Shown: piece after piece, positions 3,741 to 33,104 of the stretch
Layout of the letters: every line of letters begins with the position of its first letter
Numbering within the stretch: position 1 is the stretch's first letter
Assembly (NCBI GenBank): GCA_016213435.1
Contig: JACRAL010000098.1
Coordinates: 141 to 64,140, forward strand
Source: Bacteroidota bacterium
GTDB lineage: Bacteria > Bacteroidota > Bacteroidia > Palsa-948
Length of the DNA: 64,000 nucleotides
Reading direction: 5' to 3'
Notes under the pieces: model-generated
What the model was told of the DNA's origin: nothing
Seen by the model: only the letters and a program-made list of their open reading frames with translations
The model's database searches: none
Made by a program: the position numbers and the translations under genes

Positions 3741-3826
3741 AACTTTAAAACACTTTCATCTCCCCTCCCTGATTAAACCTGCCATAGCTTTTAGCAATGC
3801 CATCCTGAACATGAATAACCACATCC
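3741..3826. repeat. authentic 3' end of the 522-aa ATPase gene; partner of repeat 3180-3265
   Basis: See 3180-3265. Confidence 0.6.
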
Positions 3827-5313: not shown

Positions 5314-5323
5314 TTTTTAAAGT

Positions 5324-6352
5324 TTAAAGGGTTAATAATTTCAGTTCTGTTTCAATAGCAAGAGCTTCTAATCGAAGTTCACTTTTGCTCATGGTTCCGC
5401 TTAATGAATGAGCAATTCGTTTGTTGGCAATTTTTATGTAAGCAGGTTTAAGTTCCAAACCGATAAAATTTCTGCCCAGCTTTTTAGCGACTACCGCAGT
5501 AGTGCCACTGCCCATGAACGGGTCCAACACGATTCCGTTTTTCGGGCAACCTGCTTTAATCGGTATGGTTATCAGTTCCTCCGGGAATACTGCAAAGTGA
5601 GCATCCTTAAATGGCTTGGTATTGATTTCCCAAACGGTGCGTTTGTTTCTGCCTTCAGCATTTCCGGCCACAAATGCGCTCTGCCTCGCACGAATCTTGT
5701 GTTCTCTTTTGTTGGCATTGCTTTTCCATTTACCATCGTATTCTTTTCGTCCTTTTCTCATCCGCTCCATATCATATTCGTTGCTCAAAAAATTCTCGTA
5801 TTGCTGCTCAAAGTGATACTGTTTTGACTTGGTGAAAAAAAATAAATATTCAAAGTCATTAGTAAATCTATCCCTCACACTTTCAGGCATGGCATTGGGC
5901 TTTTGCCATATAATCGTATTGCGTAATATCCAGCCCCGGTCTATCATGGCGAGAACAAAACGATATGGAATACCTATCAGGGACTTAGGGAATATCTTTG
6001 ATGCTAAAGGTTTTCCACTACTGGTAGGATAATATTTTTGTTTTACCACATTCTGAAAACCTGAACTGTTTTCGCTTTGTCCGTAACCGCAGTTGCTTCC
6101 ACCGTATGTATCACCCAAATTCACCCACACCGTTCCGGTAGTTTTCAGCACTCGTTTTACTTCATCAAAAATCAGCATGAGCTTATAGATGTACTGCTCA
6201 AATGTTTTTTCCAAACCGATTTGCCCTTTCACTCCATAATCACGCAAGCCCCAGTAAGGGGGAGAGGTTACAACACAATCTATGCTTTCGGCTTTCATGT
6301 TCTGCAATCCTTTTAAAGCATCCGTGTTATATATTTTGTTTACCTGTGTCAT
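5324..6352 (-). CDS. DNA methyltransferase, beta-class amino-MTase (N6-adenine or N4-cytosine), motif IV SPPY before motif I
   Basis: Motif IV VVTSPPYWGLRDYG near the N-terminus and motif I LDPFMGSGTTAVVA near the C-terminus. Its start codon overlaps the stop of the upstream 1715-aa gene (TAATG). Confidence 0.8.
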   Translation of the reverse strand: MTQVNKIYNTDALKGLQNMKAESIDCVVTSPPYWGLRDYGVKGQIGLEKTFEQYIYKLMLIFDEVKRVLKTTGTVWVNLGDTYGGSNCGYGQSENSSGFQNVVKQKYYPTSSGKPLASKIFPKSLIGIPYRFVLAMIDRGWILRNTIIWQKPNAMPESVRDRFTNDFEYLFFFTKSKQYHFEQQYENFLSNEYDMERMRKGRKEYDGKWKSNANKREHKIRARQSAFVAGNAEGRNKRTVWEINTKPFKDAHFAVFPEELITIPIKAGCPKNGIVLDPFMGSGTTAVVAKKLGRNFIGLELKPAYIKIANKRIAHSLSGTMSKSELRLEALAIETELKLLTL

Positions 6353-11499: not shown

Positions 11500-11514
11500 T
11501 GATTTTCATTTTTA

Positions 11515-12063
11515 TTAAATTGCAATACTGTCATTAAACAATAGGCTTATTTCCTCCTTATCCCTGTGCCTGATAAAATCCTGCGGAGTGATAAGCGGAA
11601 TGTCTTTGTAGCAATTCAGGTTCAGTGCGTTTGTATAAAACCTTGTAAATTCTGAACATATATCCCGCTTTTCGCTGCCAAGCCCGCTAAAATCAATTTT
11701 CAGTTTTTTGATAATTGCAATGCGAGGCAATAGAAAAAAATCGTACTTCGTTCCGTTGTCTCCACGTTCCAGTGCCTTGTCAATAGCTGTATTTATTTCA
11801 GCTTCGGTTTTTTGGGGAGAGAGTATGCAGAAATCCATATATCCGTTGATGCGATCACTTAAAAAATCGGGCTTCACTCCTTTACGGTTACTGTCAATTA
11901 TCATAAGTCGTTCACCAACTTTGAAAATTACTCCTGCATGATTGTAGTAAGCGGAATCAAAAAACTGTATGGCTTTTGCAAGCAGGTGTTTTCCCCTGAA
12001 CAATGCAATGTCTCCGCTATTTATATAAGGTCTTGCCTGATTGTATTTTTCTTTGATGGTCAT
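11515..12063 (-). CDS. permuted papain-fold (NlpC/P60-superfamily, YiiX/YaeF-like) hydrolase candidate
   Basis: 182 aa. INSGDIALFRG then YYNHAGVIF resembles the Cys-less-order GDIxF / H(V/A)G(I/V) layout of YiiX-type permuted papain amidases. Tentative. Confidence 0.35.
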   Translation of the reverse strand: MTIKEKYNQARPYINSGDIALFRGKHLLAKAIQFFDSAYYNHAGVIFKVGERLMIIDSNRKGVKPDFLSDRINGYMDFCILSPQKTEAEINTAIDKALERGDNGTKYDFFLLPRIAIIKKLKIDFSGLGSEKRDICSEFTRFYTNALNLNCYKDIPLITPQDFIRHRDKEEISLLFNDSIAI

Positions 12064-12080
12064 TGCTTTTATTTTATAGG

Positions 12081-13631
12081 TTATTGAACATTGGCATCTA
12101 CAAGCAGTACACCAACCAGTGTCGTTACGTTGGCATGTTTCGCCCTGTTTGCAAAACCTGTATAGACAATGGCATTGCGTAGAGCTGCTGCAAATAATGA
12201 ATTTGTACCTATGTTGGTTGTTACAATTATGGTTTGATTGAGTATCGGTGTACCTCCGTTAATGACAATGCCATGAGCATTGGCAGTGTTGCTCAGATTT
12301 TTCAACCTGCCTTTTACTTCCACAATACCACCCGACATGGTAACAACTCCTGCATCTTTTGTTATGACCACATCTCCGTTAATTCTTGCCTGTGCTGAAC
12401 TTCCGGTAACGCTGATATTTCCAACGCCTGAAATATTTCCGTAGTAATTCAGGATGCCTGAATTATTATTGATAAGCACCGCTATATCCGCATCATCCTG
12501 TAAGTCCCCATATACATTGACAATGGCAATGGAAGGAAAAATATTTTGCTGTACATGAATGGCTCCCTGCGTTAAATTACCAACGGTGCGTGTTAATTTG
12601 CCATGCACTTCCTGATAACCTCCTGCGCTCCATGTAACAATCCCACTGGCGGAATTGCTGATAATTTCTTTGGCATAGATGATATGCCTGTGCGTAGAAG
12701 ATGTGCCTGTGATAACGGTACACGCTCTGCCCTGTGCAATAATTTTATTCGCCACCACATATAAATTAGTGGTGGGGTCTGTGGACATCACGCCTTCTCC
12801 GGTTGTATTGATTATATCCCCTGCTACCTGCACATTCACTTTGCATCCACCCCCTGCAAAAATTACAGGTTGAGCAAAAGAACTGGAGGTCATAGACCTG
12901 CATTGAAAATTTATCGTACTGTTATTGAACGATACAATCAATACTGCGGAAGTAGATACCATATCCGCAAAACCTGTTACAGTATAGCTGTGTGTTCCTC
13001 CGGGGTCGTTCCAAAATCCATTTACGGTGCCGCCAAAAGGAAAATGATATGTCAATCCGTTTTTACCAAGTTGTCCGGGTTCATTATATGTTCCGGGAAA
13101 CATGACAAGGGCTTCCCCTGCCACTGCAACAACTTGTGCAGCAGTAATAGTTTTGTATTTGAACTCGGTACTGTTCTTTTTTGCGGTCAGGTCATCGCCA
13201 AAAACCGGGTCCACGTAAAGCGCATTGGTTTTTAACCGCAGGTTTACATTGGTAATTCCCCAACTGTTTCCTACCGCTACCTGATCGCCACCGGGATTAT
13301 CGGAGGTGGCATAGACAAAATCCCCGATTTCTACTTCAGCTCCATTTACCCCACCGATTTTCCCTGCCTGTATGATATAATACGCATCTCCTGTTTGTGC
13401 AGCAGGATAATTGGGATTAGCAGAAGCATCGATGCTGCCGATTATTTTCAATACTCCGGCAGGCAGAATCCCTTCGATACTGAGCGTAGAATAATCATAT
13501 TGTTTTTCATTGACCCTGATTATACGGTCAGGATTATTGAGAATCTGTGTGGACAGGGCAGCGAAGAACGCCTTGTTGTCTATGGCTTCCGGTAGGATGC
13601 CTCCTTTGGGTATCATTTGAATTGCTAACAT
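12081..13631 (-). CDS. beta-helix (pectate-lyase-like) fibre/tailspike-like protein
   Basis: 516 aa, extremely G/N/T/V/I-rich with periodic short beta-strand repeats (VNVQVAGDIINTTGEG, GNISVTGSSAQARINGDVVITKDAGVVTMSGG). Confidence 0.45.
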   Translation of the reverse strand: MLAIQMIPKGGILPEAIDNKAFFAALSTQILNNPDRIIRVNEKQYDYSTLSIEGILPAGVLKIIGSIDASANPNYPAAQTGDAYYIIQAGKIGGVNGAEVEIGDFVYATSDNPGGDQVAVGNSWGITNVNLRLKTNALYVDPVFGDDLTAKKNSTEFKYKTITAAQVVAVAGEALVMFPGTYNEPGQLGKNGLTYHFPFGGTVNGFWNDPGGTHSYTVTGFADMVSTSAVLIVSFNNSTINFQCRSMTSSSFAQPVIFAGGGCKVNVQVAGDIINTTGEGVMSTDPTTNLYVVANKIIAQGRACTVITGTSSTHRHIIYAKEIISNSASGIVTWSAGGYQEVHGKLTRTVGNLTQGAIHVQQNIFPSIAIVNVYGDLQDDADIAVLINNNSGILNYYGNISGVGNISVTGSSAQARINGDVVITKDAGVVTMSGGIVEVKGRLKNLSNTANAHGIVINGGTPILNQTIIVTTNIGTNSLFAAALRNAIVYTGFANRAKHANVTTLVGVLLVDANVQ

Positions 13632-13656
13632 GGTTGTATGTGTTTAGAATTAATAA

Positions 13657-14226
13657 TTAGAAAATGTTTTGGATTAAATACTTGATAATGAAAATGAAGG
13701 TGCCGTCTCCATTAGCCGGATTTGCTATTTGAGCGTAGAGTTCTACGCCCGCATTTTCAACAATAACTAAAGGGTTTGTGATGTTTGAGATTCCTGTACA
13801 AATCCTCGAATTAGGCGCTTGAAAAAAGAAGCTGTTGTTAAAAGCGCAAATCTGTTCTGCGGGGCTGGCTCCTGCATATTTTAAATAGGGTCCGAAGCCA
13901 CCTGTATATGGGATAGTGCCGAAGTTGTATTTCCCAATCACATCAGTTACCCTTGCATATTTCCCAACTCCAGGCGGGGGAACAACCAATTTGGGATTTG
14001 AAAACCAAGTTTGAGCATCTGCCGAAGAATGAGGGATGATAACCGTTTGGGGTGTATCGCTGCCTCCCGCAGTTTCAACATCAACGGTGCCGAGTTGAAA
14101 ATGAATGTCGTTAATGATAATCAGGTCATCTACAATGTTGGAGTGTTTTAAGGCGTGATAAAATTTATCCGTATTAACTGCTTCCATTGCAGCTCCGCCT
14201 TTTCGCTTTAGCTTAATTGTTTGCAT
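13657..14226 (-). CDS. hypothetical protein
   Basis: 189-aa ORF packed between the fibre-like and transglycosylase genes. Confidence 0.35.
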   Translation of the reverse strand: MQTIKLKRKGGAAMEAVNTDKFYHALKHSNIVDDLIIINDIHFQLGTVDVETAGGSDTPQTVIIPHSSADAQTWFSNPKLVVPPPGVGKYARVTDVIGKYNFGTIPYTGGFGPYLKYAGASPAEQICAFNNSFFFQAPNSRICTGISNITNPLVIVENAGVELYAQIANPANGDGTFIFIIKYLIQNIF

Positions 14227-14295
14227 AGGGTTAAAAATTATTCTTTAAAAATTTTATTATCTCTTTTCGTTTTGCATACGCAATTCCTGTGAGTG

Positions 14296-14964
14296 TTATG
14301 ATGAGCAATCCTCCGATGATGCCTCCTTTGTGTTGTTTGACGGTGGCAACGACTTTTTTTTTAAGGCAGCTAAAAACTCTTTCGGAATTTTCTTGTAAAC
14401 AAACTCCTTGAACTCGGCTACTGTCATGTGTCCGTCTTTATTCAGGTCAAGGGGATTTTGCTGCACAATCTTTTTAGCATAGTCCATTCCTTTCTCGCTT
14501 CCGATAATGTAATCGTCAGGTTTCCCTACCGATATGGGATAGAAGGTGTACAAATACAAATCCTCAAAACTTTTCAGCTTGCCCTTTGCGGACTGAAAAT
14601 ATTTGAACACATAGTCAAGCTGCTGCACATTGCTCATCTTGAAAAGTTCCTGTGTGGAAGTGCCAAGATTTTTAGCGGTCTTTGGCATGAACTGTATTAA
14701 GCCGGTTGCCCGGTACTTTGACCTTTCATAATCGTTGGTGCTGTCAGGTATTCCTGCGGATTTTACCTGCTTGCCATCACCATCATAACCCGGTGTACTT
14801 GCCTTTTGCTTATTGACTATCTGCGGATTGAATGTTCCCCCTGTTTCGGAGTTCATCACCGCCATAATCCAGTCGGGTTGCACACCCAGGTCGGCAGCAA
14901 TTTTTTTCAGCTTTGTGAAAAATGCCTCTGCATTGAATTTTATTTTGTCCTGAAAGAGTATCAT
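14296..14964 (-). CDS. lytic transglycosylase (SLT-domain) family protein
   Basis: Motif GLIQFMPKTAKNLG with downstream Tyr-rich segment typical of the SLT domain. Start overlaps the stop of the upstream gene. Confidence 0.6.
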   Translation of the reverse strand: MILFQDKIKFNAEAFFTKLKKIAADLGVQPDWIMAVMNSETGGTFNPQIVNKQKASTPGYDGDGKQVKSAGIPDSTNDYERSKYRATGLIQFMPKTAKNLGTSTQELFKMSNVQQLDYVFKYFQSAKGKLKSFEDLYLYTFYPISVGKPDDYIIGSEKGMDYAKKIVQQNPLDLNKDGHMTVAEFKEFVYKKIPKEFLAALKKKSLPPSNNTKEASSEDCSS

Positions 14965-15983
14965 TGGTTCACTGATTTAATAGTTACAAATTGTTTGTCC
15001 ACCCACCTTTTCGTATCGTCTATGGTTAAAAATTTCAGGAGCGTTTTATCTTTGGTTTTAAGTTCCATGATCGGAAAGCCAAGTATCATTTCACTTTCCG
15101 CCCTGCCCACTACATGAAACTTATCATCCATGATGTCTGCCGGTACATGGGTAATGATTTCCTGATGATAGTTCACATAATCCGTCCCGTTGAGGGAAGA
15201 ACTGGCATCGTCATATTGCGCTTTGGTGATGGAGAGAGCAGGATATTTCTTTTCCTTGTACTGGGCTCCGCTGATGGTCTCTACCTGCGAGGCAGCTACC
15301 CATGCGGTATAGCTGTCTTTAATAGTTCCTCCTTTTTTTAATACCTGCACTTCGATAAATAAAACTCCGCTTGGCTCTGCTTTTTCGTCAAAGGATGTTC
15401 TGCCGGTAGCTACACCTATGGCAATGCTTTTATCTACTGTGATGATAATATTGCTCCTGCCGAAAACAAGCAGCTTATCCTTTGTCGGTGAGCCGGTAGC
15501 TCTCGGGGTCTTGCGGATATTTACACTTGCTTTGGAAACTACAATCCGTCCTTTATTAGAATCAACCTTTGATTTACCCGGCTTGCCGGGAGATTTTTCA
15601 GTGAGATTGATGATGTTAAAAAACTTCTGATATTCTTCCGCAGATAAATCATCCTTTAAATCTTCCGTCAGATTGGTGTTGTATAGGTTTCTGTATGCTT
15701 TGGTAACAGCGTCCCAATCCGTGATTTCTTTTGCAGTTTCAAAAATTGTTTTCTCATCTGTTCCGGCTCCCTCCATTGCAGTTCTGAATTTTATTGCCTG
15801 TTGCGTTGAAGGATCGTCCCCTGCTTTCTTTTCCTGCTGGTTTGTCCTCCATTGGTTATAGAATTTCTTACCGCCCCATAAAAGCAATAACAAAAGTCCT
15901 CCCTTAACAGCATAATCAATGATGGTATCTTTCTTATGCTCCGGGATAAAAAACACATTGGGTTGTTTTTCTTTTACAGCCAT
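14961..15983 (-). CDS. membrane-anchored protein with annexin-like repeat (AMEGAGTDEKTIFE)
   Basis: N-terminal TM. IKFRTAMEGAGTDEKTIFETAKEIT...AVTKAYRNLYNTNLTEDLKDDLS fits the annexin endonexin fold signature GxGTDE. Confidence 0.35.
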   Translation of the reverse strand: MAVKEKQPNVFFIPEHKKDTIIDYAVKGGLLLLLLWGGKKFYNQWRTNQQEKKAGDDPSTQQAIKFRTAMEGAGTDEKTIFETAKEITDWDAVTKAYRNLYNTNLTEDLKDDLSAEEYQKFFNIINLTEKSPGKPGKSKVDSNKGRIVVSKASVNIRKTPRATGSPTKDKLLVFGRSNIIITVDKSIAIGVATGRTSFDEKAEPSGVLFIEVQVLKKGGTIKDSYTAWVAASQVETISGAQYKEKKYPALSITKAQYDDASSSLNGTDYVNYHQEIITHVPADIMDDKFHVVGRAESEMILGFPIMELKTKDKTLLKFLTIDDTKRWVDKQFVTIKSVNQ

Positions 15984-16147
15984 TTCTTAGCAGTTTGAAT
16001 GAGTCCCGGTTTTTCTTTCACCTTTTTAGCAAACAATAAAAGGTCTTCATGCGACATGGATTTTTTCAGATCAATCATTGCCTGTATTGCTTCCCTTGCT
16101 TTTTCACTCGTGGGAGCATCAATCTTTACATTGAATGTGAACTCCAT
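15974..16147 (-). CDS. small hypothetical protein (about 57 aa), not in the ORF track (below 60 aa)
   Basis: ORF MEFTFNVKIDAPTSEKAREAIQAMIDLKKSMSHEDLLLFAKKVKEKPGLIQTAKKWL fills the only gap in the gene array. Its stop overlaps the next start (ATGGCTGTAA). Confidence 0.3.
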   Translation of the reverse strand: MEFTFNVKIDAPTSEKAREAIQAMIDLKKSMSHEDLLLFAKKVKEKPGLIQTAKKWL

Positions 16148-16149
16148 TT

Positions 16150-17295
16150 TCAATTTTCTTTTTTGGTTTCTTCCGGTTTATTCTGATTGACAAATTGCAG
16201 GACTTTATCAGCCAGTTCATTGTTGAGCATCCCCGAAACAGGGTCTTGCATCATACAGTCAATCGTAAAGAGTTTTCGGAACTCATCCACTTTCACCTGC
16301 TTAAAAAATTGGATGAGGTCTTTTATCCCCTGTGCGTGTTTCGGGTCTAATCCTGCAAGATCACCGGCAGAACTACTTTCGCTGAAACTGCTATTGTCAG
16401 AAGATTTCCCATTTTCAATTTTCTTTTGCTCGCCTTCCCAAATCTTTTTTATTTCCTCATCGGTAAGCCCAAGTCCGATTTTCATTAGCTTGGGATTGTT
16501 CTTTAAAATATTTTCTCCTGCTTGCATCAGCACTCTGCCCAGTACCATTTCACCAAAGGGCTGTTCTTTTTCTTCGTTCAATCCTTCCAGATGTCCTTCG
16601 TACTCGTTTAACTCCCCTTCCATTTCCTCAATGATTTCATCCCTTTCTTTTATGGCAGCTTGCATTTCGTTGATTTCGTTTTGCTGCTGAAGTTTCAGCT
16701 CTTTGATTTCAGAGCTATGTTCCTGCGCTTTGAGCTTGGCATCAAAATCCCTTCGCATCAATTCCAGTTCATAGCTATTGGGATTGAGCGTGCTGCGTAT
16801 TTTTTCAATAGAGCTTTCAAAGTTTTCAGGGCTTCCCAGCTCGTCCAGGGTTTCCTTTGTCTCCGAAGGATTGGTAACGAGGTAAATGTCTTTGGAGTAA
16901 ACAGCACCCGATTTTTTCATTTTGCCTTTGTAGATTTCTACTTTAATGGCATCGGGGTCTCTCGATTCTAAAATCTTCGCAAGGTCTTTTATAAAAGGAT
17001 CACGCCCCGGTTTGGGGATGTAGGGTGTTTGTTCCCAACGTCCGTCTTTGCAGTAATGAGAAATTACCCCGCACTCCGGGCGGTAAACAAAAATCTTTTT
17101 CCCTTCCTTTGGGCTTTCTTCCGTAGAAACAGGTTCCGTTTTTTTCTTTTGTATTTCCTTGTTCTTCTGCTTTGCTTCCTTTTCGGATTCGTCCAGACGA
17201 ACTGCTATTTCCTCTACTTCGGGATGCTTCTTAAAAAAATCGTGTGGCTTGAATTTCATTTTTATAATTATTAGTTCGTATTTGTTGGCTGACAA
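16150..17295 (-). CDS. hypothetical Lys/Glu-rich coiled-coil protein
   Basis: 381 aa with long charged heptad-like stretches. No catalytic motif. Confidence 0.4.
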   Translation of the reverse strand: MSANKYELIIIKMKFKPHDFFKKHPEVEEIAVRLDESEKEAKQKNKEIQKKKTEPVSTEESPKEGKKIFVYRPECGVISHYCKDGRWEQTPYIPKPGRDPFIKDLAKILESRDPDAIKVEIYKGKMKKSGAVYSKDIYLVTNPSETKETLDELGSPENFESSIEKIRSTLNPNSYELELMRRDFDAKLKAQEHSSEIKELKLQQQNEINEMQAAIKERDEIIEEMEGELNEYEGHLEGLNEEKEQPFGEMVLGRVLMQAGENILKNNPKLMKIGLGLTDEEIKKIWEGEQKKIENGKSSDNSSFSESSSAGDLAGLDPKHAQGIKDLIQFFKQVKVDEFRKLFTIDCMMQDPVSGMLNNELADKVLQFVNQNKPEETKKEN

Positions 17296-17612
17296 AAAAG
17301 TTCCGGGACAACTTTCATAAACTGAATATCTATGGGTGCTGCCGGCTGACTTATTTCTATAAGCCCTGAAAATTCCTGTATGCTGTAATAAGTGAAGTCA
17401 GGAAAATTAGCTGCCTCGTTGAATATGTTGGTATCGGATGCTATCACTAAGCCCACAGGAACAGTTTTGCTTATCAGATAATAGTATTCGTTGTATGCTT
17501 CTACCATTGCTTTGCTCGCATTGATAAAAATTCTCACCGGCTCGAAATGAAATGTTTTATATCCCATTTCACTGAGGCGTTGAGTGATGTATGCTATTAA
17601 AAAGTCATCCAT
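17271..17612 (-). CDS. hypothetical protein
   Basis: 113-aa ORF. Confidence 0.35.
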   Translation of the reverse strand: MDDFLIAYITQRLSEMGYKTFHFEPVRIFINASKAMVEAYNEYYYLISKTVPVGLVIASDTNIFNEAANFPDFTYYSIQEFSGLIEISQPAAPIDIQFMKVVPELFCQPTNTN

Positions 17613-18114
17613 TGTTGATTTTGTTATCCGTTGTGTTTGTCGTGCAGTCCAAATAAATCCGAATTTTATAAGGAAATGATACTGCCGATGCTAAGTCCTC
17701 GTAATAGCCCTGTACGTATGAACCTGCTTCAATTTCTTCCTCCAGCTTCAGTGTTTCGTATTTCCTTCGGAGAAAATCCAATGGTTTTGATTCCACGATG
17801 TAATTAAGCGGTTGGGACTTTCGGTTATTGATAAACAAGCTCACTCTGCCCAGCACATAATTTTTTGCACTGCTGCCTTCCACGTTGCCGGAAAAAATAA
17901 ATCCTTTACAGCGTTTTATGTTGGCAGGGAGTTTGTATGTGATTTTCTTCACACTGCCTGAAGCAATGTTGTCAATCAGGATAAGCCCCCATTTTTTACG
18001 CTCATGCTTTTGCATCGTCCTGCCTGTTTTCAAGTCGTAAATAAATTCTCGCATTATAAGGATAGGCGGTAGCATTGCCCGCATCCTGAAAACTTCCTGA
18101 TACAGTTGAACCAT
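17605..18114 (-). CDS. hypothetical protein (true start probably the internal Met near 18015)
   Basis: 169-aa ORF. Overlaps the upstream ORF by 113 nt unless an internal start is used. Confidence 0.35.
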   Translation of the reverse strand: MVQLYQEVFRMRAMLPPILIMREFIYDLKTGRTMQKHERKKWGLILIDNIASGSVKKITYKLPANIKRCKGFIFSGNVEGSSAKNYVLGRVSLFINNRKSQPLNYIVESKPLDFLRRKYETLKLEEEIEAGSYVQGYYEDLASAVSFPYKIRIYLDCTTNTTDNKINNG

Positions 18115-18388
18115 CGGCTCGCTCCTCTATGTCATCATAGAAGCGTTTGTTAGGAGAAACTTCCTGCCCAGTTTGAATGAGTTTTACCTCAAATCCATCG
18201 GGGAATATTTCGTTGGAATCAATCTCGAATTTTGTAAAGACAGCATCTTTCAGGGCTGCTGTATCCGTGCCGGAATACTGTAACCCGGTAACTTTCTTGT
18301 ATGCTTTGTCTGTTTCCGCACTGATAGGAAAGTTTCCTGCCCCGGTTATGGTCAGCTTAATAATCTGATATTTAATTGGTCTCCGCAT
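18002..18388 (-). CDS. hypothetical protein
   Basis: 128-aa ORF. Confidence 0.35.
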   Translation of the reverse strand: MRRPIKYQIIKLTITGAGNFPISAETDKAYKKVTGLQYSGTDTAALKDAVFTKFEIDSNEIFPDGFEVKLIQTGQEVSPNKRFYDDIEERADGSTVSGSFQDAGNATAYPYNARIYLRLENRQDDAKA

Positions 18389-18463
18389 TGGCTTTATGTT
18401 AAAAGGTTAATGAACAAAACGTAGGGGCTTCTCATTTTGTGATCCACCCCTTCGTTTGTATTC

Positions 18464-19171
18464 TTAGTAAGGAGCCACTGAAGACCCTATCAAAATAGCT
18501 TTCAGCCATGTGTTCGCAGCCGGAGCTACTGCAAAGTCAAGGTTAAACTCAAGACCTTGTTCCGCTTCCACAAGTTTGGGATTCTCCAACCTGAAAAGTC
18601 CTTTGCGGATGTCTGTCCTGCCTCCGGTGTCAAATGCTTCGTTGGAAACACGGGCTGCCGGAGTGATGGCTTTTCCTCCGTTGATTTTGAGTTCAAAATC
18701 TCCGTTGCGGATTTCGTGAGGTATCACATCAAAGGTTACGTCCTCTTTGAGTGGTGCGATACCTGCCAAAAGAACTACCCCGCTTAACAGGAAGTGATTG
18801 TCTTTTTCGAGTTTCTGCTTGCTCACGTTGCCAAGTCCCGGAGCTTTGTTGTCGCTGTCGGTAATCATCTTCACGGTTTTGAAGCCACCGGCAGATTTCA
18901 CGAAATAAAATTCGCTGTCCACCATTTGCAGCCTCTTATCTAACAATCCTTTTTGGATGTCGGCAGGCAGCATGGCTGCTTTGCGTAAAAATTCCGTCCT
19001 GGAGTTTTGTTTCAACGCCACAGGAACACGCTTGTTCCACATTTTTTTCATTGCCATTGCTTTGCGGTCAGGAGGCAGTGCGTTGATAGCGCCAAGCAAT
19101 TCGTTGGTTGTTTCCACTGACAAGGCTCCGAGATCGAAGTCCTCACTGTCTAATACTTTGTTTAAGTCCAT
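18464..19171 (-). CDS. hypothetical protein
   Basis: 235-aa ORF. Confidence 0.4.
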   Translation of the reverse strand: MDLNKVLDSEDFDLGALSVETTNELLGAINALPPDRKAMAMKKMWNKRVPVALKQNSRTEFLRKAAMLPADIQKGLLDKRLQMVDSEFYFVKSAGGFKTVKMITDSDNKAPGLGNVSKQKLEKDNHFLLSGVVLLAGIAPLKEDVTFDVIPHEIRNGDFELKINGGKAITPAARVSNEAFDTGGRTDIRKGLFRLENPKLVEAEQGLEFNLDFAVAPAANTWLKAILIGSSVAPY

Positions 19172-19227
19172 TGTTTTTAGTTTTTAAGGGTTAATAATTG
19201 TTTTGGTTTTTTGATTTGATTTTTGGT

Positions 19228-19803
19228 TTATAATATTTCAGCATATTCCACATTCAGCCCTGAAATTTCTGATTCACTTTCTGTATCAACTGCTGAAATT
19301 GGTGTTGAAACAGGAGTGTTTATATTTTCAGGCAAGGCAGGTCGGAACGAATTGTCCTGCAATAGTTTCATAATTTCGTCTTTCGCTTCCCGGTAGTATT
19401 TGGCTTCCAAGGGTCGGTTTTCACTGTCTCCTGCCTCGCCAAGCCCTTCAAAGAGGTCTTTTTTCAGCAGCTTGGCACCGCTGATAACTCCTGAACCAGC
19501 AAAGCCATAGCCGAAACTTTTCACGAAATCATTTTTTCTTCCGAAGTAGATAATGGTGCCTCCGGCTCCGAGCTGCGCTAAGGGTTTGACGATTGTCTTC
19601 CACTGGAATTTGTCAGGGTTGGCAGCATCGGGGGTAACAGGAAGGAATTTATCTACGGCTTTGCCCGCCATGTTTCCTACCCATATTCCCGCTACAATCA
19701 AAAGAGGTTTGCTGCTTTCGCTTAATACTTTTTTTCCTGCCTCTTTTGCTTTTTCAATTCCGCTAAGTCCTTTGGACTTGCATTTTGTTTGTTTATTAGC
19801 CAT
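19228..19803 (-). CDS. hypothetical protein
   Basis: 191-aa ORF with a hydrophobic N-terminal segment. Confidence 0.4.
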   Translation of the reverse strand: MANKQTKCKSKGLSGIEKAKEAGKKVLSESSKPLLIVAGIWVGNMAGKAVDKFLPVTPDAANPDKFQWKTIVKPLAQLGAGGTIIYFGRKNDFVKSFGYGFAGSGVISGAKLLKKDLFEGLGEAGDSENRPLEAKYYREAKDEIMKLLQDNSFRPALPENINTPVSTPISAVDTESESEISGLNVEYAEIL

Positions 19804-19843
19804 TGTTATTTGATTTTTTTAGGTTAATAGATTTGTGATAGTT

Positions 19844-21664
19844 TTAGTTTAGATTCATTATTGGAATCGGGTTACGTTTTGGCTTTCTGTGTTTCCTTTT
19901 CGGAACAGCGCCTAATCCCACAGCTTTTCTTGCTTTTGGCGATACTGCCAGTGCGATAGCTGTTCCTATCACAGCAATACCGATAGCTGTTTTTCCCGGA
20001 TTCTCTTTCACGAATGAGCCAACCTTGCTTATAAATCCTTCGCCTTCGGGTTTATCATTTCCTTTATCATCACCGGATTCTGCATCACCGGATTCTGCCT
20101 TTTCATCAGGGGCTTTTTCCGCATCACTCACCGTTTCGGGAGCAAGCGCAGTTTCTTTTCCGAAAGATTTTTTCCACCATTCTTTGATTTTCTGAATGAA
20201 ACCTTTTTCATCGGCAGGAGTATCTTCGCCTTTTTCAGTCAGTCCTGCGCTCTTTATTTCTCCTGCTACTTTGATGAGTGGCGCTGCGGATGCTACAACC
20301 GTTGCAATGGTGGCTGGTTCTCCCAATTCTCCAAAACCTTTGAACTGCTTTGCAGCTCTGCCATTCATAATGGCTTTTTTCATGTTCTCGGCTTTGCCCT
20401 GAAGGGTACCCACAAAAAGTTTTTCAACTTTCGCCAATGCGTTTTTAGCCCTTTGCCATTTGTCGGTAGTGATTCCCCTTGTCTTCGCTTCGGATTCAGA
20501 GAGGTAAGCGGGATAGAGTTTTTTTGCGAAGCCCAGTAAGTTAATTTTCATGGCAAGCAGAAAACCGCCACGTACAGCAAGGGTCAAAGGATTGTATCTG
20601 ACTATTGCTTTAACTGCTTTTTTCGCAACTTCTCCTACTTTCTGCCCTACCTTTTTCACTCCCTGCCCGACTTTCTTCACCGCTTCCTTTATATTTTTAA
20701 AAAATTTCTTGCGGGCTTTGATAGCTCCAAGTCCGTTGATTTCACCATCATCGTCATCCTCTCCGTCAAGTCCACTCACGCCATTGTGCTGATTCCATCG
20801 TTCTTCTTCCTGCTCCAAAATTTCCAATGCCTTATCCCTGCCCGGAGTGTTCCAGTTGTCAATGGCATAGTTGAGCATCTGCAAATGAGCTGCTGCACCT
20901 CCTGACGTAAGGACTGATTTGGGATTTTCCATGATGTAATCCCTTGTCCGCACCAAGTGGTTGTAAATTGCTCTTAGCTCTTGTTCATCGGAAGGAATTT
21001 TGCCCATTCCTTCGAGGTAGTCAATCTCTGCGAAATCAACTCCTGTTAAAATGCCATACAGTTCTTCGTCCTGGATCGGATCCGGTCCGGACAGAACTGC
21101 TATCGGTAGTCCGTTTAGTGTTGTCATGTTGTATTCAAATTTTTCGGTGTATGGTTTTTCATAATTGAACTCGTCCACTACGCAATCCATGAGGTAATGA
21201 CTGCCCTGTGATTTGGGAACTGCCACGTACACATGCTGCCAGTCGCCTTCGTATTTGGTTATTCTGAACTTGTGAGGTATGCCGAGATTGGCAAGTATGG
21301 AACTGATAAAAATGGAATAGCAGTCGCAGTCCACGCCTGATATTCTATCGTACCATGACCTTGCAGGTCTGCGGAGTTGTTCTAATCCTTTCTGATCGAG
21401 CTTGTATTGAATGTGGTCGTAAACAAAATCCCAGATGTTCCGGCAGGTCTGCTCAAGATTTTTTCCTTTCAGTTTTGGTGCAATCAGTTTGGTATCGTCA
21501 ATGTATTTATTCACTACATCAGCCATGAGGTGAACGGTGTCTTTCACGTTACCATCCCGGATAACAACATCGTCCTGCATTTTGGCAACAGGAAACAGGT
21601 GATCGTATTCCAAACCACTTTGGATATTTCTTCTTTTGGTTGCTATGAGACCGAGTGTATTCAT
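19844..21664 (-). CDS. transglutaminase-like cysteine-protease-fold domain protein with Lys/Ala-rich repeat region and C-terminal TM segment
   Basis: GVDCDCYSIFISSILANLGIPHKFRITKYEGDWQHVYV...YLMDCV fits the Cys-His-Asp transglutaminase-like core. C-terminal KKVGQGVKKVGQKVGEVAKKAVKAI repeats, then a TM helix and a basic tail. Confidence 0.45.
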   Translation of the reverse strand: MNTLGLIATKRRNIQSGLEYDHLFPVAKMQDDVVIRDGNVKDTVHLMADVVNKYIDDTKLIAPKLKGKNLEQTCRNIWDFVYDHIQYKLDQKGLEQLRRPARSWYDRISGVDCDCYSIFISSILANLGIPHKFRITKYEGDWQHVYVAVPKSQGSHYLMDCVVDEFNYEKPYTEKFEYNMTTLNGLPIAVLSGPDPIQDEELYGILTGVDFAEIDYLEGMGKIPSDEQELRAIYNHLVRTRDYIMENPKSVLTSGGAAAHLQMLNYAIDNWNTPGRDKALEILEQEEERWNQHNGVSGLDGEDDDDGEINGLGAIKARKKFFKNIKEAVKKVGQGVKKVGQKVGEVAKKAVKAIVRYNPLTLAVRGGFLLAMKINLLGFAKKLYPAYLSESEAKTRGITTDKWQRAKNALAKVEKLFVGTLQGKAENMKKAIMNGRAAKQFKGFGELGEPATIATVVASAAPLIKVAGEIKSAGLTEKGEDTPADEKGFIQKIKEWWKKSFGKETALAPETVSDAEKAPDEKAESGDAESGDDKGNDKPEGEGFISKVGSFVKENPGKTAIGIAVIGTAIALAVSPKARKAVGLGAVPKRKHRKPKRNPIPIMNLN

Positions 21665-22212
21665 ATCATTACTTCCTCCGTAAAAGTTTTGTTGATGTCA
21701 TTCCCGCTGGTGATGACTTCTATTTTCAATTTTCTGCTTGGCTTCTTTCCTGCAAAGCGGGAAGCGAGGTATTTGATAAAGTCAGGCATGACCGGCAAAA
21801 CAGCATTGGCATAGAACACTACGTCCACATCGCTGATAAAAGAAGCGTCTTTCGCTTTGAGCGTAATTTTTTTATCGGAGGGCGTGGAGGTTCCTATGAG
21901 CTTGTTGTTATAGTAAACTTTCAGGTAGGGCTGTGAAACAATAAGGTCTTTGTCGGTAGGATTATCGGCTTTTATGTCTGCCTTGAAAACTACTTTCGGA
22001 ATAGCAAGCCCCAGCCCTTTTAATCCCTGTGATTTAAGGTCGAATCGGTCAATATGAAAATTGAGAGCATCGGCAGTAGCGGAAGTGCTTAAAAGCCGTG
22101 TAAGACCATAAATGCCTGCTGCGGATAAACCGCCAACTATTAATATGGTTCCTGCCTTACTCATCTTTTTTGTTCCTTTTACTTTTGATTTTATGCAGCA
22201 TCCAGTCTCCAA
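21661..22212 (-). CDS. hypothetical membrane-anchored protein
   Basis: 183 aa with N-terminal TM segment. Confidence 0.4.
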   Translation of the reverse strand: METGCCIKSKVKGTKKMSKAGTILIVGGLSAAGIYGLTRLLSTSATADALNFHIDRFDLKSQGLKGLGLAIPKVVFKADIKADNPTDKDLIVSQPYLKVYYNNKLIGTSTPSDKKITLKAKDASFISDVDVVFYANAVLPVMPDFIKYLASRFAGKKPSRKLKIEVITSGNDINKTFTEEVMI

Positions 22213-29570: not shown

Positions 29571-30020
29571 ATGAATACGACAAGATTTCTTCTTTCTTGG
29601 ATTCTGAGTGCATTGGTAATGTTTTCCCTTTCGTACTTATGGCATGGCGTTTTTTTGAATGATCTGCAACGCCTGTCCTATCCTAAAGGAATCTTCCTCA
29701 CCGGTTGCATCATCACTTATCTGATACTTGGGTTTCTTGTTACAAAAATTTATTTAATGAACTATCCGAAATCCATTGCGCGAAAACCGCTTGTCAGAGG
29801 ATTGATTGCAGGCTCGGTGCTTGGGGTATGCACGTATATTGTTTCACTTGTAGTTGGGGTTTCTTTTAATTATACACTTACTCTTGGCAACATCCTTTTT
29901 GACCTTTTATGGCAAACCGTAGAGCAAACCTTCGGAGGAGTTGTAGTTGCATTTGTCTATATCTGGATTTACGAAGGAAATCCTGTTGAGGTGATCGGCC
30001 GAAAAATGTTTGGTGATTAG
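29571..30020 (+). CDS. hypothetical membrane protein (4 TM)
   Basis: 149 aa, hydrophobic helices. Confidence 0.4.
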   Translation: MNTTRFLLSWILSALVMFSLSYLWHGVFLNDLQRLSYPKGIFLTGCIITYLILGFLVTKIYLMNYPKSIARKPLVRGLIAGSVLGVCTYIVSLVVGVSFNYTLTLGNILFDLLWQTVEQTFGGVVVAFVYIWIYEGNPVEVIGRKMFGD

Positions 30021-31339
30021 TATCCGTATTTCTCCTTCCAGTTCTTCTTCAAAAATTTCCGAAATCTTTTCTCTGCATCATTATCTCCCGGTTCATACCA
30101 TTTTGTGCCGCTTAATTCATCCGGAAGAAATTCTGCATTTATAAAATTTCCTTCATAGCTATGAGCATATTGATACTCTTTTCCATAGTTAAGATCTTTC
30201 ATCAGTTGAGTGGGAGCGTTGCGGATAGAAAGCGGAACGGATAGATCGCCAGTTTTTTTTACCGCTTCCTGCGCAGTTCCGATTGCTTTGTAAGAAGCAT
30301 TGCTTTTAGGAGAACAGGCAAGGTAAACAACCGCTTGTGAAAGAATAATTCTTGCTTCCGGCAGGCCAATTGCATTTACTGCCTGAAAACAATTATTAGC
30401 AAGAACAAGCGCCATCGGATTTGCATTGCCCACATCTTCCGAAGCGAGAATGAGCAATCTTCTGGCTATGAAAAGAGGATCTTCACCGCCTTCAATCATT
30501 CTTGCTAAGTAGTAAACTCCCGCATTTGGATCACTGCCACGTATTGATTTGATGAATGCGGAAATAATATCGTAATGCTGCTCGCCCGTTTTATCATACA
30601 AAGCCATTTTCTGCTGAACAACATTCAAAAGATTTTCATCAGTGATTACGATATCTTGCACCCCGCCCTGAAGGGAGCTATTGTCATCACTTTCCCCCTT
30701 TAGGGACGGGGTAATCGAACTCACATATAACTCCAATGCGTTATATAACTTCCTTACATCACCGCCTGAAAGACGAAGCAACGCATCACTTTCTTTCACA
30801 ATTATTTTTTTCTTTTTTAATATCTCATCTGCATGAATTGCATAATCAATGAGTGAGATCAAATCCTGTTTTTCCAGATGATTCAACAAATAAACCTGGC
30901 AGCGAGAAAGCAAAGCGGAAATTACTTCGAACGAAGGATTTTCTGTTGTGGCTCCGATCAGCGTAATGGTTCCTTTCTCCACTGCTCCAAGCAAAGAATC
31001 TTGTTGTGCCTTGCTGAAACGATGAATTTCATCTATGAAAAGTATAGGATAATTTGTTCCGAAAAATGAATCAGCGGATGCTTTGTCAATTACCTCGCGT
31101 ATGTCTTTGACTCCTGAATTGATTGCGCTCAGCTGGTAATAGGGGCGTTTTAGTTGAGTGGCAATGATCCTTGCCAGTGTTGTTTTTCCTACGCCCGGAG
31201 GTCCCCATAAGATCATGGAAGGAATAGTTCCGGCTTCAATGGCTCTTCTGAGAATAGCGCCTTCGCCCACAAGGTGTTTCTGACCGATAAATTCATTCAG
31301 CGTTTTAGGACGAAGCCGCTCTGCTAAAGGAATACTCAT
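30017..31339 (-). CDS. rarA: replication-associated recombination protein A (AAA ATPase RarA/MgsA)
   Basis: Walker A GPPGVGKTTLARIIA, Walker B LFIDEIHRF, and C-terminal MgsA helical/tetramerisation region with YDxxGEQHYDIISAFIKSIRGSD. Confidence 0.9.
   Translation of the reverse strand: MSIPLAERLRPKTLNEFIGQKHLVGEGAILRRAIEAGTIPSMILWGPPGVGKTTLARIIATQLKRPYYQLSAINSGVKDIREVIDKASADSFFGTNYPILFIDEIHRFSKAQQDSLLGAVEKGTITLIGATTENPSFEVISALLSRCQVYLLNHLEKQDLISLIDYAIHADEILKKKKIIVKESDALLRLSGGDVRKLYNALELYVSSITPSLKGESDDNSSLQGGVQDIVITDENLLNVVQQKMALYDKTGEQHYDIISAFIKSIRGSDPNAGVYYLARMIEGGEDPLFIARRLLILASEDVGNANPMALVLANNCFQAVNAIGLPEARIILSQAVVYLACSPKSNASYKAIGTAQEAVKKTGDLSVPLSIRNAPTQLMKDLNYGKEYQYAHSYEGNFINAEFLPDELSGTKWYEPGDNDAEKRFRKFLKKNWKEKYGY
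30664..30711. repeat. GC-rich REP-like element (CCCTGAAGGG ... CCCCCTTTAGGGACGGGG) in-frame in the rarA linker
   Basis: Encodes KGESDDNSSLQGG in a linker about 11 aa longer than in E. coli RarA (sequence recalled from memory). Confidence 0.45.
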
Positions 31340-31422
31340 GGATGCAAATATAGAAATAGAAAACTGTTCTTTTCCAGAAAGAACAAAAGGAAAGAGTAAT
31401 TTTTTACTTTTGCATCCCTTAC

Positions 31423-31497
31423 GGTGGTTGTAGCTCAGTTGGTTAGAGCACTAGATTGTGGTTCTAGGGGTCGCGGGTTCAAGTCCCGTCATCCACC
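31423..31497 (+). tRNA. tRNA-His (anticodon GTG) with genomically encoded G-1; no encoded CCA
   Basis: Cloverleaf read by hand: G-1, acceptor GTGGTTG/CATCCAC, D-arm GCTCAGTTGGTTAGAGC, anticodon stem CTAGA/TCTAG with loop TTGTGGT, T-arm GCGGGTTCAAGTCCCGT, discriminator C. Confidence 0.8.
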
Positions 31498-31694
31498 CTT
31501 CTTCAAATTACATTGCGACTCTGACGCACTAGTACTCCTGCGTCAGTAGTCAGAGTGCAGGTCAAAGCGTCAGCATTCAAGTCCCGTCATCCACCCTTCT
31601 TCAAATTACATTGCGGCTCTGACGCACTAGTACTCCTGCGTCAGTAGTCAGAGTGCAGGTCAAAGCGTCAGCATTCAAGTCCCGTCATCCACCC
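31478..31694 (+). repeat. 98-bp tandem repeat (2.2 copies) seeded in the tRNA-His 3' end; the 21-mer TTCAAGTCCCGTCATCCACCC occurs three times
   Basis: Copies at about 31478-31498, 31576-31596 and 31674-31694. The intervening 77-bp units differ by a single nt and contain the hairpin CTGACGCA-N10-TGCGTCAG. Confidence 0.8.
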
Positions 31695-31727
31695 AAATCC
31701 TGACTTATTGTAAGTCAGGATTTTTTA
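31695..31727 (+). terminator. rho-independent terminator AATCCTGACTTA-TTG-TAAGTCAGGATT followed by T6
   Basis: 12-bp perfect stem, 3-nt loop, T-run. Overlaps the stop codon of the convergent HK gene. Confidence 0.7.
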
Positions 31728-33104
31728 TATCGGCATTTCAATTTTATAGCTTGTTCCTTTGTTAATCACACTGTCTATTGTTAATGTGCCATTATAGGAT
31801 TCAACTTGTGATCGGATATATTTAATACCTAATCCTTTAGACTGATCCATGTTGCTGATTTTAAAACCAACTCCGTTATCTTCCAGCAGCAACATTACTT
31901 TATTGTCGTAGCTATTCAAGTTGATACTGATTTCGGTTGCTTTGCCATGCACAATGGAATTATCTATAAATTCTTGAATAATTCTGTAAATTAGAATTTG
32001 TAACGTTTTATCTAGATTGGGAAAAGAATCATTTATTGTGATTTTAAATTTCAGCCCATTACTTAGCATCCTGTTATTGCAAAGATCATGCATTGCGGCT
32101 ATTAAGCCAAACTCTATCAATGTTCTTGGCATCAGGTCGTAGCAGATCTGACGTAATTCAGTAAATACATTATCCATTGCATTTGTAGATTTGATAACTG
32201 TATTCCTGATCTTTTCTTTTGGAAAACTTCTGGTATTGCCATGTGTGATTGTTTGCAGATAAAACTTGATCCCTGCCAATTGTTGAGCCAAGCTGTCGTG
32301 TAAGGCACTGGCAAATTTATCCCTGTCAGTTTCCTGCTTATCTATAAGAGCACGAAGTAAACTGTTGTTGGCTTCCTTCTGTTTAGTAATGTCTTTTATC
32401 AAACCAAAATATCCTGACTCCTCGCTGTTTCCGTTGATAGGATTTACAGAAATTAATGCATCAATCCGCTTATTCTTCTTATCCTTTAACTTTATGTCCA
32501 TATTCTGAATGGCTCCATCTTTCTTTAATTTCTTTATTAATTCCTCCACATTAGTATCTACCAACAATTCATGGAAATCAATAGTGTAAAGCTGATTTCT
32601 CGAATATTTCAATATGACAGATGCTGCATTATTAAAATCTATCAGAAGTCCGTTTTTGTTTACTAGAAAAATAACATCTTTTGTTTCCTCAAAAATATTT
32701 TTATACTGGGTGAGTAATTTTTTGTTTCGTTCCTTAAAAGCATAAACTTCATACGCATTCTCAATGATAATTTTCAATTCATTTGCATTAAAAGGTTTTA
32801 AGATATAGCGGTAAACCTCCCCCAGATTAATCGCTTCTATTACTGTTTCTATATCTGAATAGGCGGTAAGAAGGATTCTGACAGGATCGGGATATTCCGG
32901 AATAATTGACTCTAGAAATTCTATGCCCGTGGTGTTGGGCATACGCTGATCGGTAATAATGATATTGATTTCTTTTTCCTTTAATATCTTTCTTCCTTGT
33001 TCTGCCGATTCTGCAGTATAAACTGCAAAATGTTCTCTGAAATTAGCTTTGAATGATGTTAAATTATTTACTTCATCATCTATGTAGAGTATTTGGATTT
33101 TCAT
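31725..33104 (-). CDS. hybrid signalling protein: N-terminal receiver (REC) - PAS - NarL-type histidine kinase (HisKA_3 + HATPase_c)
   Basis: REC with ITDQRMPNTTG (phospho-Asp), PAS-like middle, H-box ASALHDSLAQQLAG, ATPase box LEDNGVGF. Confidence 0.7.
   Translation of the reverse strand: MKIQILYIDDEVNNLTSFKANFREHFAVYTAESAEQGRKILKEKEINIIITDQRMPNTTGIEFLESIIPEYPDPVRILLTAYSDIETVIEAINLGEVYRYILKPFNANELKIIIENAYEVYAFKERNKKLLTQYKNIFEETKDVIFLVNKNGLLIDFNNAASVILKYSRNQLYTIDFHELLVDTNVEELIKKLKKDGAIQNMDIKLKDKKNKRIDALISVNPINGNSEESGYFGLIKDITKQKEANNSLLRALIDKQETDRDKFASALHDSLAQQLAGIKFYLQTITHGNTRSFPKEKIRNTVIKSTNAMDNVFTELRQICYDLMPRTLIEFGLIAAMHDLCNNRMLSNGLKFKITINDSFPNLDKTLQILIYRIIQEFIDNSIVHGKATEISINLNSYDNKVMLLLEDNGVGFKISNMDQSKGLGIKYIRSQVESYNGTLTIDSVINKGTSYKIEMPI

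Follow-up and report, generated by a model that had tools for sequence, protein, structure and literature searches.

SegB is a free-standing GIY-YIG homing endonuclease encoded in the tRNA gene cluster of T-even phages; its cleavage motif within tRNA genes is RAWTSGAAC, tandem amplification of a segment made up of tRNA and segB depends on SegB, on its nuclease activity and on the recombination genes uvsX and uvsY, and truncation of its C-terminus removes its toxicity (PMC13096335). Two further arrangements bear on what follows. In Escherichia coli the tyrT-tyrV (rttR / tpr) array consists of 3.1 copies of a 178 bp unit and begins with the last 19 nt of tRNA-Tyr, as does each unit within it, and in the att islands of tyrosine integrases direct repeats of a tRNA 3' end flank an insert, the tRNA is kept intact and the insert is polymorphic for presence and absence. 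The locus described here is a short tandem array at the 3' end of the tRNA-His gene of a Bacteroidota bacterium (assembly GCA_016213435.1, contig JACRAL010000098.1, positions 141 to 64,140 of the forward strand; this 64-kb stretch is referred to as the window). We conclude, with a probability of roughly 0.8–0.85, that the array consists of two tandem remnants of a tRNA-linked GIY-YIG nuclease cassette, both lacking the open reading frame (ORF) of that cassette. We regard the intact cassettes, which are found in other genomes, as a family of selfish nuclease elements associated with tRNA genes, of which the window array is a decayed and non-autonomous member and for which SegB appears to be the closest functional analogue.

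The array follows an intact tRNA-His(GTG) gene (31424 to 31498, forward strand) that is recognized both by ARAGORN and by the Rfam tRNA model (65.1 bits), and in which G-1 is encoded at 31423 and the CCA only in part. A 21-mer, TTCAAGTCCCGTCATCCACCC, corresponding to tRNA positions T54 to C74 (the T-loop, the 3' half of the T-stem and the 3' strand of the acceptor stem), occurs exactly three times on the forward strand: at 31478–31498, within the tRNA, where the register of the array begins, and again at 31576–31596 and 31674–31694. No such matches are expected by chance, and there are none elsewhere in the window even when up to three mismatches are allowed. The copies are separated by two spacers of 77 bp (31499–31575 and 31597–31673, forward strand) that begin with TTCTTCAAATTACAT... 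and end with ...GTCAAAGCGTCAGCA, and which differ at a single position, an A at 31519 corresponding to a G at 31617; Tandem Repeats Finder reports a period of 98 bp, 2.2 copies and 99% matches over 31478–31694. The third 21-mer runs directly into an intrinsic terminator, AAATCCTGACTTATTGTAAGTCAGGATTT followed by a T-run (31695–31729, forward strand), with a 13-bp stem at 31695–31723. Since the units differ at only one of 98 positions, the duplication is evidently recent. An earlier note made from the sequence of the window had described this 98-bp triplication ahead of a strong terminator, had seen no cargo between the 21-mer copies and had taken the duplication to be recent, and all of this is borne out, the inserted DNA amounting to 2 x 77 bp with no ORF. 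The hairpin that it quoted, CTGACGCA...TGCGTCAG, is present too, albeit as just one of several pairings allowed by the repeated CTGAC/GTCAG arms; the pairing conserved in the cassette family is TCTGAC...GTCAGA.

That the array is an assembly artefact or a chance repeat is hardly credible. Short-read assemblers can mis-build tandem repeats, and a Logan contig of the same locus (L001) does break inside the repeat, but a collapsed or duplicated read path would not yield units that differ at one base, three exact 21-mers were found where none was expected, and the same architecture is present in many independent assemblies, including those of isolate genomes.

The identity of the spacers is indicated by two features, a decayed ORF tail and a structured module. 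The first spacer contains the ORF tail, a first hairpin (hairpin 1, TCTGAC...GTCAGA) and a mutated second hairpin (hairpin 2, GCAGGTC...GCGTCAGC). Its ORF-tail remnant reads SDALVLLRQ*SEC (31520–31558) and that of the second spacer GSDALVLLRQ*SEC (31615–31656), as compared with the family tail GPDALILLNQWSGC; in both of these remnants, 14 codons at the longest, the TGG codon of the family has become TAG, an in-frame stop. A covariance model, R1, built from 29 aligned modules of other genomes and containing no window sequence, matches the window at full length at 31512–31596 (45.4 bits, E 1.2e-11) and 31610–31694 (51.6 bits, E 1.5e-13), both on the forward strand, and nowhere else in the 64 kb, and tRNA T-arms alone score 13 bits in an E. 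coli control. Each match spans a remnant of the T-stem 5' half, the two hairpins and the 21-mer. Compared with the consensus, both units have a weaker inner stem in hairpin 1 and a broken hairpin 2 (GCTGACC has become GCAGGTC); an exact 21-mer follows each module, and GCGAC or GCGGC precedes it, compared with GCGGG in tRNA-His itself. The window array thus has the module, the copy of the tRNA 3' end, the co-oriented position downstream of the tRNA and ahead of its terminator and the T54 register that characterize the cassette family, and of the GIY-YIG ORF it retains the tail only. As the intact ORF is missing, we consider the array a relic or non-autonomous derivative rather than a complete member.

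The same site can be examined in relatives, all of them uncultured Bacteroidota, whose syntenic contigs were gathered through homologues of the neighbouring RarA protein. In four of these the tRNA-His site is empty. The terminator directly follows the tRNA in L003, L090 and L096 (RarA 94, 84 and 81% identical to that of the window, respectively), and in L009 (88%), where it likewise adjoins the tRNA, the terminator AAAATCCTGACTTATCAAAAGTCGGGATTTTTTT is orthologous to that of the window. A fifth contig, L002, encodes the same RarA protein as L003 and has flanks that are 99.84% and 100% identical to it, and carries 378 extra bp bounded by direct repeats of about 61 bp comprising the tRNA 3' end and the terminator. 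This insert encodes a protein of 100 amino acids (aa) in which the only Pfam domain is GIY-YIG (PF01541), and it ends ...GCTGACCGAAGCGTCAGCA/TTCAAATCCCGTCATCCACCC, the same junction as at the end of the window spacers; the cassette is therefore polymorphic between near-identical genomes. Five others (L004–L008; RarA 90%) contain a decayed remnant, in which the sequence after tRNA-His, TTCTTAAAATAACATCGCGGCT..., shows homology to some 65 nt at the start of the window spacer, the tRNA junction included (CCACCC/TTCTT.AAAT.ACAT.GCGGCT in common, with decay beyond). The G at 31617 is probably the ancestral base, as L004 carries G too. Because the relatives are variously empty, occupied and decayed, the 2 x 98 bp of the window represent an insertion between the tRNA and its native terminator.

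These comparisons also decide against the framework within which the array was originally viewed, namely that a tyrosine-integrase island used the tRNA-His 3' end as attB and that repeated integration and excision left duplicated att cores. The direct repeats of the tRNA 3' end and the presence/absence polymorphism of L002 and L003 are what such an att scar would produce, and they are the features shared with tyrosine-integrase islands. However, no integrase adjoins the array, whose neighbours encode RarA and a histidine kinase; the window has no distal att copy, and no further 21-mer or spacer; the polymorphic insert of L002 is just 378 bp long and encodes only the 100-aa GIY-YIG protein; and the spacer is homologous to the tail of the GIY-YIG cassette (R1 E values of 1e-11 to 1e-13). 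The cassettes differ from att islands, moreover, in their small inserts (77–380 bp), in a boundary that lies at or near T54 in tRNA genes of ten isotypes, in forming tandem arrays with that register, and in the hairpin module that abuts the repeat. We therefore regard the att-scar reading as largely refuted, and very improbable. The earlier note is partly supported in its interpretation: the array is the footprint of a mobile element, as it proposed, and the extra tRNA 3' ends arose by insertion and not as a native trailer, with relatives that differ in state and do not all carry the same 2.2 copies. No integrase is involved, and the copies of the 21-mer or spacer for which it suggested a search near 3745 and 23300 are absent from there, as from everywhere else in the window. 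Among the options that it listed, a satellite that co-opts the tRNA end comes nearest to the cassette remnant that we favour.

Intact cassettes were sought by scanning one genome per species for relatives of the L002 protein, which yielded 301 stretches encoding such relatives, and the best 80 loci (L010–L089) were studied. The proteins are about 82–101 aa long, come from Bacteroidota or Chlorobiota and are often encoded on very short contigs; the loci include those of isolates of Draconibacterium, Maribacter, Winogradskyella, Phaeodactylibacter and Fulvivirga, with Draconibacterium sediminis JN14CK-3, D. orientale DSM 25947, Maribacter polysiphoniae DSM 23514, Winogradskyella tangerina M1309 and Phaeodactylibacter xiamenensis KD52 among the cultured strains that carry the cassette. 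Many small genes annotated as 'GIY-YIG nuclease family protein' lie beside tRNA genes in Bacteroidota. An intact cassette is about 360–430 bp long and lies directly behind an intact tRNA gene, with the order tRNA trailer and terminator, GIY-YIG ORF, a stretch resembling tRNA positions 44–53 or so, the two-hairpin module and a copy of the 3' end of the resident tRNA; the trailer and terminator of the intact tRNA are then repeated after this downstream fragment. In 50 of the 80 loci the ORF lies at most 71 nt downstream of the end of a co-directional tRNA gene, and in 14 others this distance is 116–486 nt, mostly with another unit in between; of the loci that remain, half lie at the end of a contig. 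The tRNA genes concerned belong to ten isotypes (Gly, Asp, Met, Leu, Lys, Thr, Glu, Pro, Ser and His). The encoded proteins have a C-terminal tail in common, G-[IV]-A-G-P-D-A-L-x-L-L-x-Q-W-S-G-C. Where the protein is 100 aa long, its reading frame extends across the T-stem half and hairpin 1 to a TGA stop codon within hairpin 2; in shorter forms (82–91 aa) it ends earlier.

The module and then the resident tRNA 3'-end copy follow the ORF in 48 loci, and in most of these the copy begins at T54. In nine (L014, L016, L029, L030, L036, L054, L056, L058 and L075) it begins about five nt later and the module replaces the T-loop, with a junction of the form ...GTCAGCA/TCTCGTCC... and a hairpin 2 whose nested loop is longer. 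On its 5' side the module is usually preceded by sequence that matches the T-stem 5' half of the resident tRNA, and near-complete second tRNA copies are found there for tRNA-Glu (L039, L055, L067), tRNA-Leu (L060, L085) and tRNA-Met (L020). Because tRNA sequence flanks the module on both sides, in most loci it falls inside a dead tRNA copy, between positions 53 and 54, and the downstream copy has the look of a tRNA opened within its T-loop. A single insertion with target-site duplication could not be made to fit this arrangement, in which tRNA sequence lies on both sides of the module and the ORF lies outside. Extra small hairpins (CCTGAC...GTCAGG or CCCGAC...GTCGGG) occur just 3' of the module in L043, L059, L020 and L049, within the 3' strand of the acceptor stem in the dead tRNA copies (TCTC/hairpin/GCTAC), and another hairpin with the same arm motif lies in the D/anticodon region of a dead copy in L085 (around 2330–2350); the hairpin unit may itself be insertional.

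The module has the consensus YCYGACG-inner stem-GTCRGR followed by ATGCTGAC-loop-GTCAGCA, and its pairing is strongly conserved: 97.8% of alignment cells are paired and 15 of the 23 base pairs show compensatory changes, a result reached by none of 500 shuffles, and slid controls give 26–39% pairing. Not a single G-U pair occurs in the roughly 270 cells of hairpin 1, a hint that the constraint acts on the DNA rather than on RNA. The hairpins could serve as a protein-binding site, a cruciform substrate, an insertion that confers immunity at the cut site, or a 3' structure of the RNA. Arms like those of hairpin 1, CCTGAC/GTCAGG, are also present in the stem of the tRNA-His terminator of the window (31700–31718), and the pattern CTGAC-N(3-30)-GTCAG occurs three times in the 64 kb (0.32 expected), in each case at the tRNA-His locus. 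The terminators of the empty sites in L009 and L096 have the same arms, as do a minority of those associated with cassettes (L013, L065 and L020). It could be that the terminator is related to the element, or that the element recognizes it.

The structural conservation of the module raises the question of whether the window array acts as an RNA, with 98-nt units released from the tRNA-His trailer as a small RNA, sponge or regulator whose dose is raised by the duplication. Lying between the tRNA and its terminator, the array must be transcribed with the tRNA; module structure is conserved and covaries across the family; and the window units fold better than shuffled sequence (z of -2.2 to -3.2). 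In the window, however, hairpin 2 is broken and hairpin 1 pairs poorly in its inner stem, the same remnant has decayed in the L004 lineage and is missing altogether from four related lineages, the lack of G-U pairs in hairpin 1 is better accommodated by a constraint at the DNA level, and there is no match to an Rfam family. We consider a functional RNA improbable. In searches of Rfam 15, which includes the small self-cleaving ribozymes, the window spacer was unmatched at E <= 10 and only the tRNA was found, and intact modules from eight loci likewise returned only tRNAs at E <= 0.1. A hammerhead ribozyme, suggested by a CUGACGA and adjoining stem in the module, was rejected, there being no GAA core after the stem and no Rfam match. 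As a cassette remnant, the array is most likely part of a transcript that runs from the tRNA-His promoter to the terminator beginning at 31695, and removed from it during 3' processing of the tRNA, and it is expected to have no function of its own.

The cassette protein consists of a catalytic domain alone, with no DNA-binding domain, and the GIY-YIG catalytic positions are invariant in the family alignment. In a profile search against solved structures, its best matches are to the UPF0213 proteins 1zg2 (BH0048; E 2.6e-11) and 1ywl (EF2693; E 6.1e-9), followed by Slx1 (E 6.8e-4), with I-TevI only marginal (E 0.68), and it is perhaps best described as Slx1/UPF0213-like. UPF0213 has no assigned function, and Slx1 differs in working with Slx4 on branched DNA. 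The cassette nuclease may be structure-specific, a suggestion prompted by the hairpins next to it that use only Watson–Crick pairs. No relatives of the protein were found by tblastn in 50,697 phage genomes or in IMG/VR, nor in 72,556 plasmids, and searches of phage, plasmid and IMG/VR sequences for the module pattern gave nothing either. NCBIfam and PHROGs contain no corresponding family, and PADLOC gave only two weak matches to PDC-S14 (E of about 1e-3), both for one protein.

Tandem arrays are frequent in the family and share the T54 register of the window array. L037 contains 5.5 copies of a 375 bp unit at 99% identity, in register from T54 of tRNA-Lys, and L015 has 2.8 copies of a 430 bp unit in register from T54 of tRNA-Gly; within the latter (2760–2896) one module directly follows another, head to tail, without an intervening tRNA fragment (...GCGTCAGG/GTCCTGACG...). 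Altogether, R1 identifies 99 modules in 86 loci. Among the 90 on the plus strand, 81 are preceded by a GIY-YIG core, and the other nine are solo modules with an anatomy like that of the window unit, as in L076, where tRNA-Leu is followed by 16 nt, a module, a tRNA 3' copy and a terminator. Clusters of related ORFs mostly keep to one isotype, but several combine two isotypes from a single genus (Gly with Asp in Draconibacterium, Leu with Pro in a different cluster); at the tRNA-Met loci L016 and L029 the sequence 5' of the module still looks to be of the Asp/Gly type. The cassette has evidently moved between tRNA genes.

Solo modules also invite comparison with miniature inverted-repeat transposable elements (MITEs), the window unit then being a live, ORF-less element, and its array dynamic, with a GIY-YIG nuclease gene at another locus of the genome acting in trans to mobilize or amplify it. 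The window unit resembles MITE-type derivatives in keeping its end structures, the module and the target repeat, after loss of the enzyme gene, and differs from them in having neither terminal inverted repeats nor a transposase; trans-mobilization is only hypothetical. The near-identity of the units (one difference in 98 positions) and the recurrence of solo modules beside ORF-bearing units in other genomes are in keeping with recent mobility, and the junction shared with L004 could mark a defined non-autonomous form. In addition, the Logan contig L001 (SRR12113407) ends at the 31-mer at which a k=31 graph would branch if at least two units were present, the value of k being inferred. This contig carries an identical kinase gene, and its terminal 31-mer (1741–1771) consists of GCGTCAGCA, the 21-mer and an A; a branch there would mean that spacer and 21-mer lead both into another unit and into the terminator, and would point indirectly to at least two units in that read set. 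But there is no nuclease gene in the 64 kb, hairpin 2 is degenerate in both units and the unit occurs nowhere else in the window, and we consider continuing mobility unlikely.

Several observations weigh against our preferred interpretation of the array as a pair of cassette remnants. Neither a GIY-YIG ORF nor coding potential for one is found anywhere in the window, and a progenitor in the genome is unseen. Where the tRNA ends, 13–15 nt (TTCTTCAAATTAC) precede the R1 match that are not securely assignable to either ORF or trailer. The junction shared with L004 could signify an old relic, in which case gene conversion would be needed to account for the three identical 21-mers, or else a single non-autonomous form that arrived independently. 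A metagenome scan for the right junction (GCGTCAGCA and the 21-mer) gave zero matches, as did a second one for the left junction (the tRNA end and TTCTTMAAATWACATYGCG). Finally, the resident tRNA has an intact T-loop, and an enzyme that cuts T-loops would cut its own locus too.

In the window lineage, deletion of the ORF body most likely left 77 bp of ORF tail and module between two 21-bp direct repeats, and unequal recombination or slippage between these repeats then duplicated the 98-bp unit. For the family, we tentatively suggest a mechanism that may well prove wrong, drawn by analogy, in which the nuclease cuts within the T-loop region of tRNA-gene DNA, and empty alleles as well as other tRNA genes acquire the cassette through recombinational repair, which also gives rise to the tandem arrays. 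Taken together, there is perhaps close to an even chance that the cassettes represent an undescribed class of chromosomal selfish element in the Bacteroidota and Chlorobiota, in which a minimal Slx1/UPF0213-like GIY-YIG nuclease is combined with a two-hairpin DNA module restricted to Watson–Crick pairs. Such an element would target the T-loop-coding position (usually 53/54) of nearly any tRNA gene, hop between isotypes, keep the host tRNA by duplicating its 3' end and expand into arrays, with ORF-less units as its non-autonomous progeny. No description of the family, including its module sequence, was found in the searchable literature, which is not proof that it has never been described.

The analogy with SegB rests on a GIY-YIG gene located beside tRNA genes with no isotype favoured, and on tandem segments composed of tRNA and nuclease gene. 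The reverse complement of the SegB motif, GTTCSAWTY, also appears to fit the T-loop sequence GTTCGAATC, although this is our own reading and not that of the SegB study. There are clear differences: SegB is a phage protein with a C-terminal DNA-binding region, whereas the cassette protein is chromosomal, only about 82–101 aa long and not a sequence relative; a conserved two-hairpin module at the T-loop position is reported here for the cassette and not for SegB; and the window array has lost its nuclease gene. Of the cleavage and amplification that the analogy implies, what is seen in the cassette family is the expected products, junctions at the T-loop position and tandem arrays.

The E. coli tyrT array, whose period, copy number and tRNA-Tyr register we confirmed, is similar in form, in that a tRNA 3' end and a downstream unit are repeated inside a tRNA operon transcript. 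It nonetheless shows no relation to the cassettes in sequence or structure, its only R1 scores being the 13-bit ones on T-arms, no GIY-YIG gene is annotated there and its register begins later in the T-loop. We therefore rejected it as a homologue, since it lacks the module, and treat it as an analogue in form only. Each 178-bp unit (L099; E. coli K-12 1286705–1287263) contains AAGGTTCGACTCGAGCG, which resembles the tRNA-Tyr T-arm AAGGTTCGAATCCTTC, and the tyrV-rttR repeat may also derive from rearranged tRNA copies.

Upstream, and divergent from the tRNA, is the RarA/MgsA gene (30017–31339, reverse strand) that served as the synteny anchor, for which no record of an identical protein was found. 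Between the two genes, 11 nt upstream of G-1, is the promoter-like sequence TACTTTTG (31405–31412, forward strand), which matches the Bacteroidetes -7 promoter motif, TAnnTTTG, and is likely, as judged from the sequence, to be the promoter of the whole transcript of tRNA and array. Downstream, a gene for a response-regulator-PAS-histidine-kinase protein (31725–33104, reverse strand) converges on the tRNA, and the terminator overlaps its stop codon. In three of the RarA relatives (L091, L092 and L094; 84% identity) tRNA-His lies on the rarA strand about 25 nt upstream and is not divergent, and on account of this orientation the tRNA-His/rarA junction must have been rearranged in that group. In one assembly of the L004 type, L005, a transposase gene of the rve family (insertion sequence) and AbiEii/DUF6088 genes (1325–2353) replace part of a TonB-dependent receptor gene downstream of the tRNA-His trailer, a change unrelated to the cassette. 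Elsewhere in the window, a block of co-oriented genes (3745–22212, reverse strand) with a slightly raised G+C content (0.41–0.44) encodes an N6/N4 DNA methylase, a 1715-aa Strawberry-notch-like helicase fused to RadC, an AAA_24 protein and several ORFs without Pfam domains; it looks like the cargo of a conjugative or integrative element, and there is no copy of the tRNA-His 21-mer at its ends.

In summary, the array in the window is in all likelihood an inert and harmless remnant within the trailer of a tRNA, and its value lies in exposing a compact and widespread cassette family that follows consistent rules: tRNA sequence is always present, the junction is in the T-loop (usually at 53/54), and the two-hairpin module and tandem arrays recur. 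Duplicated tRNA 3' ends are routinely annotated as integrase att sites, and the cassettes provide another source for them. Should tRNA genes indeed be cut by the nuclease within the T-loop region, SegB-type biology, which has been shown in phage, would extend to bacterial chromosomes. The small GIY-YIG genes annotated beside tRNAs in the Bacteroidota would then be explained, and there would be a mechanistic model for tandem repeats of tRNA ends, perhaps including the old puzzle of E. coli tyrT, as well as a very small nuclease with a defined and structured DNA partner.

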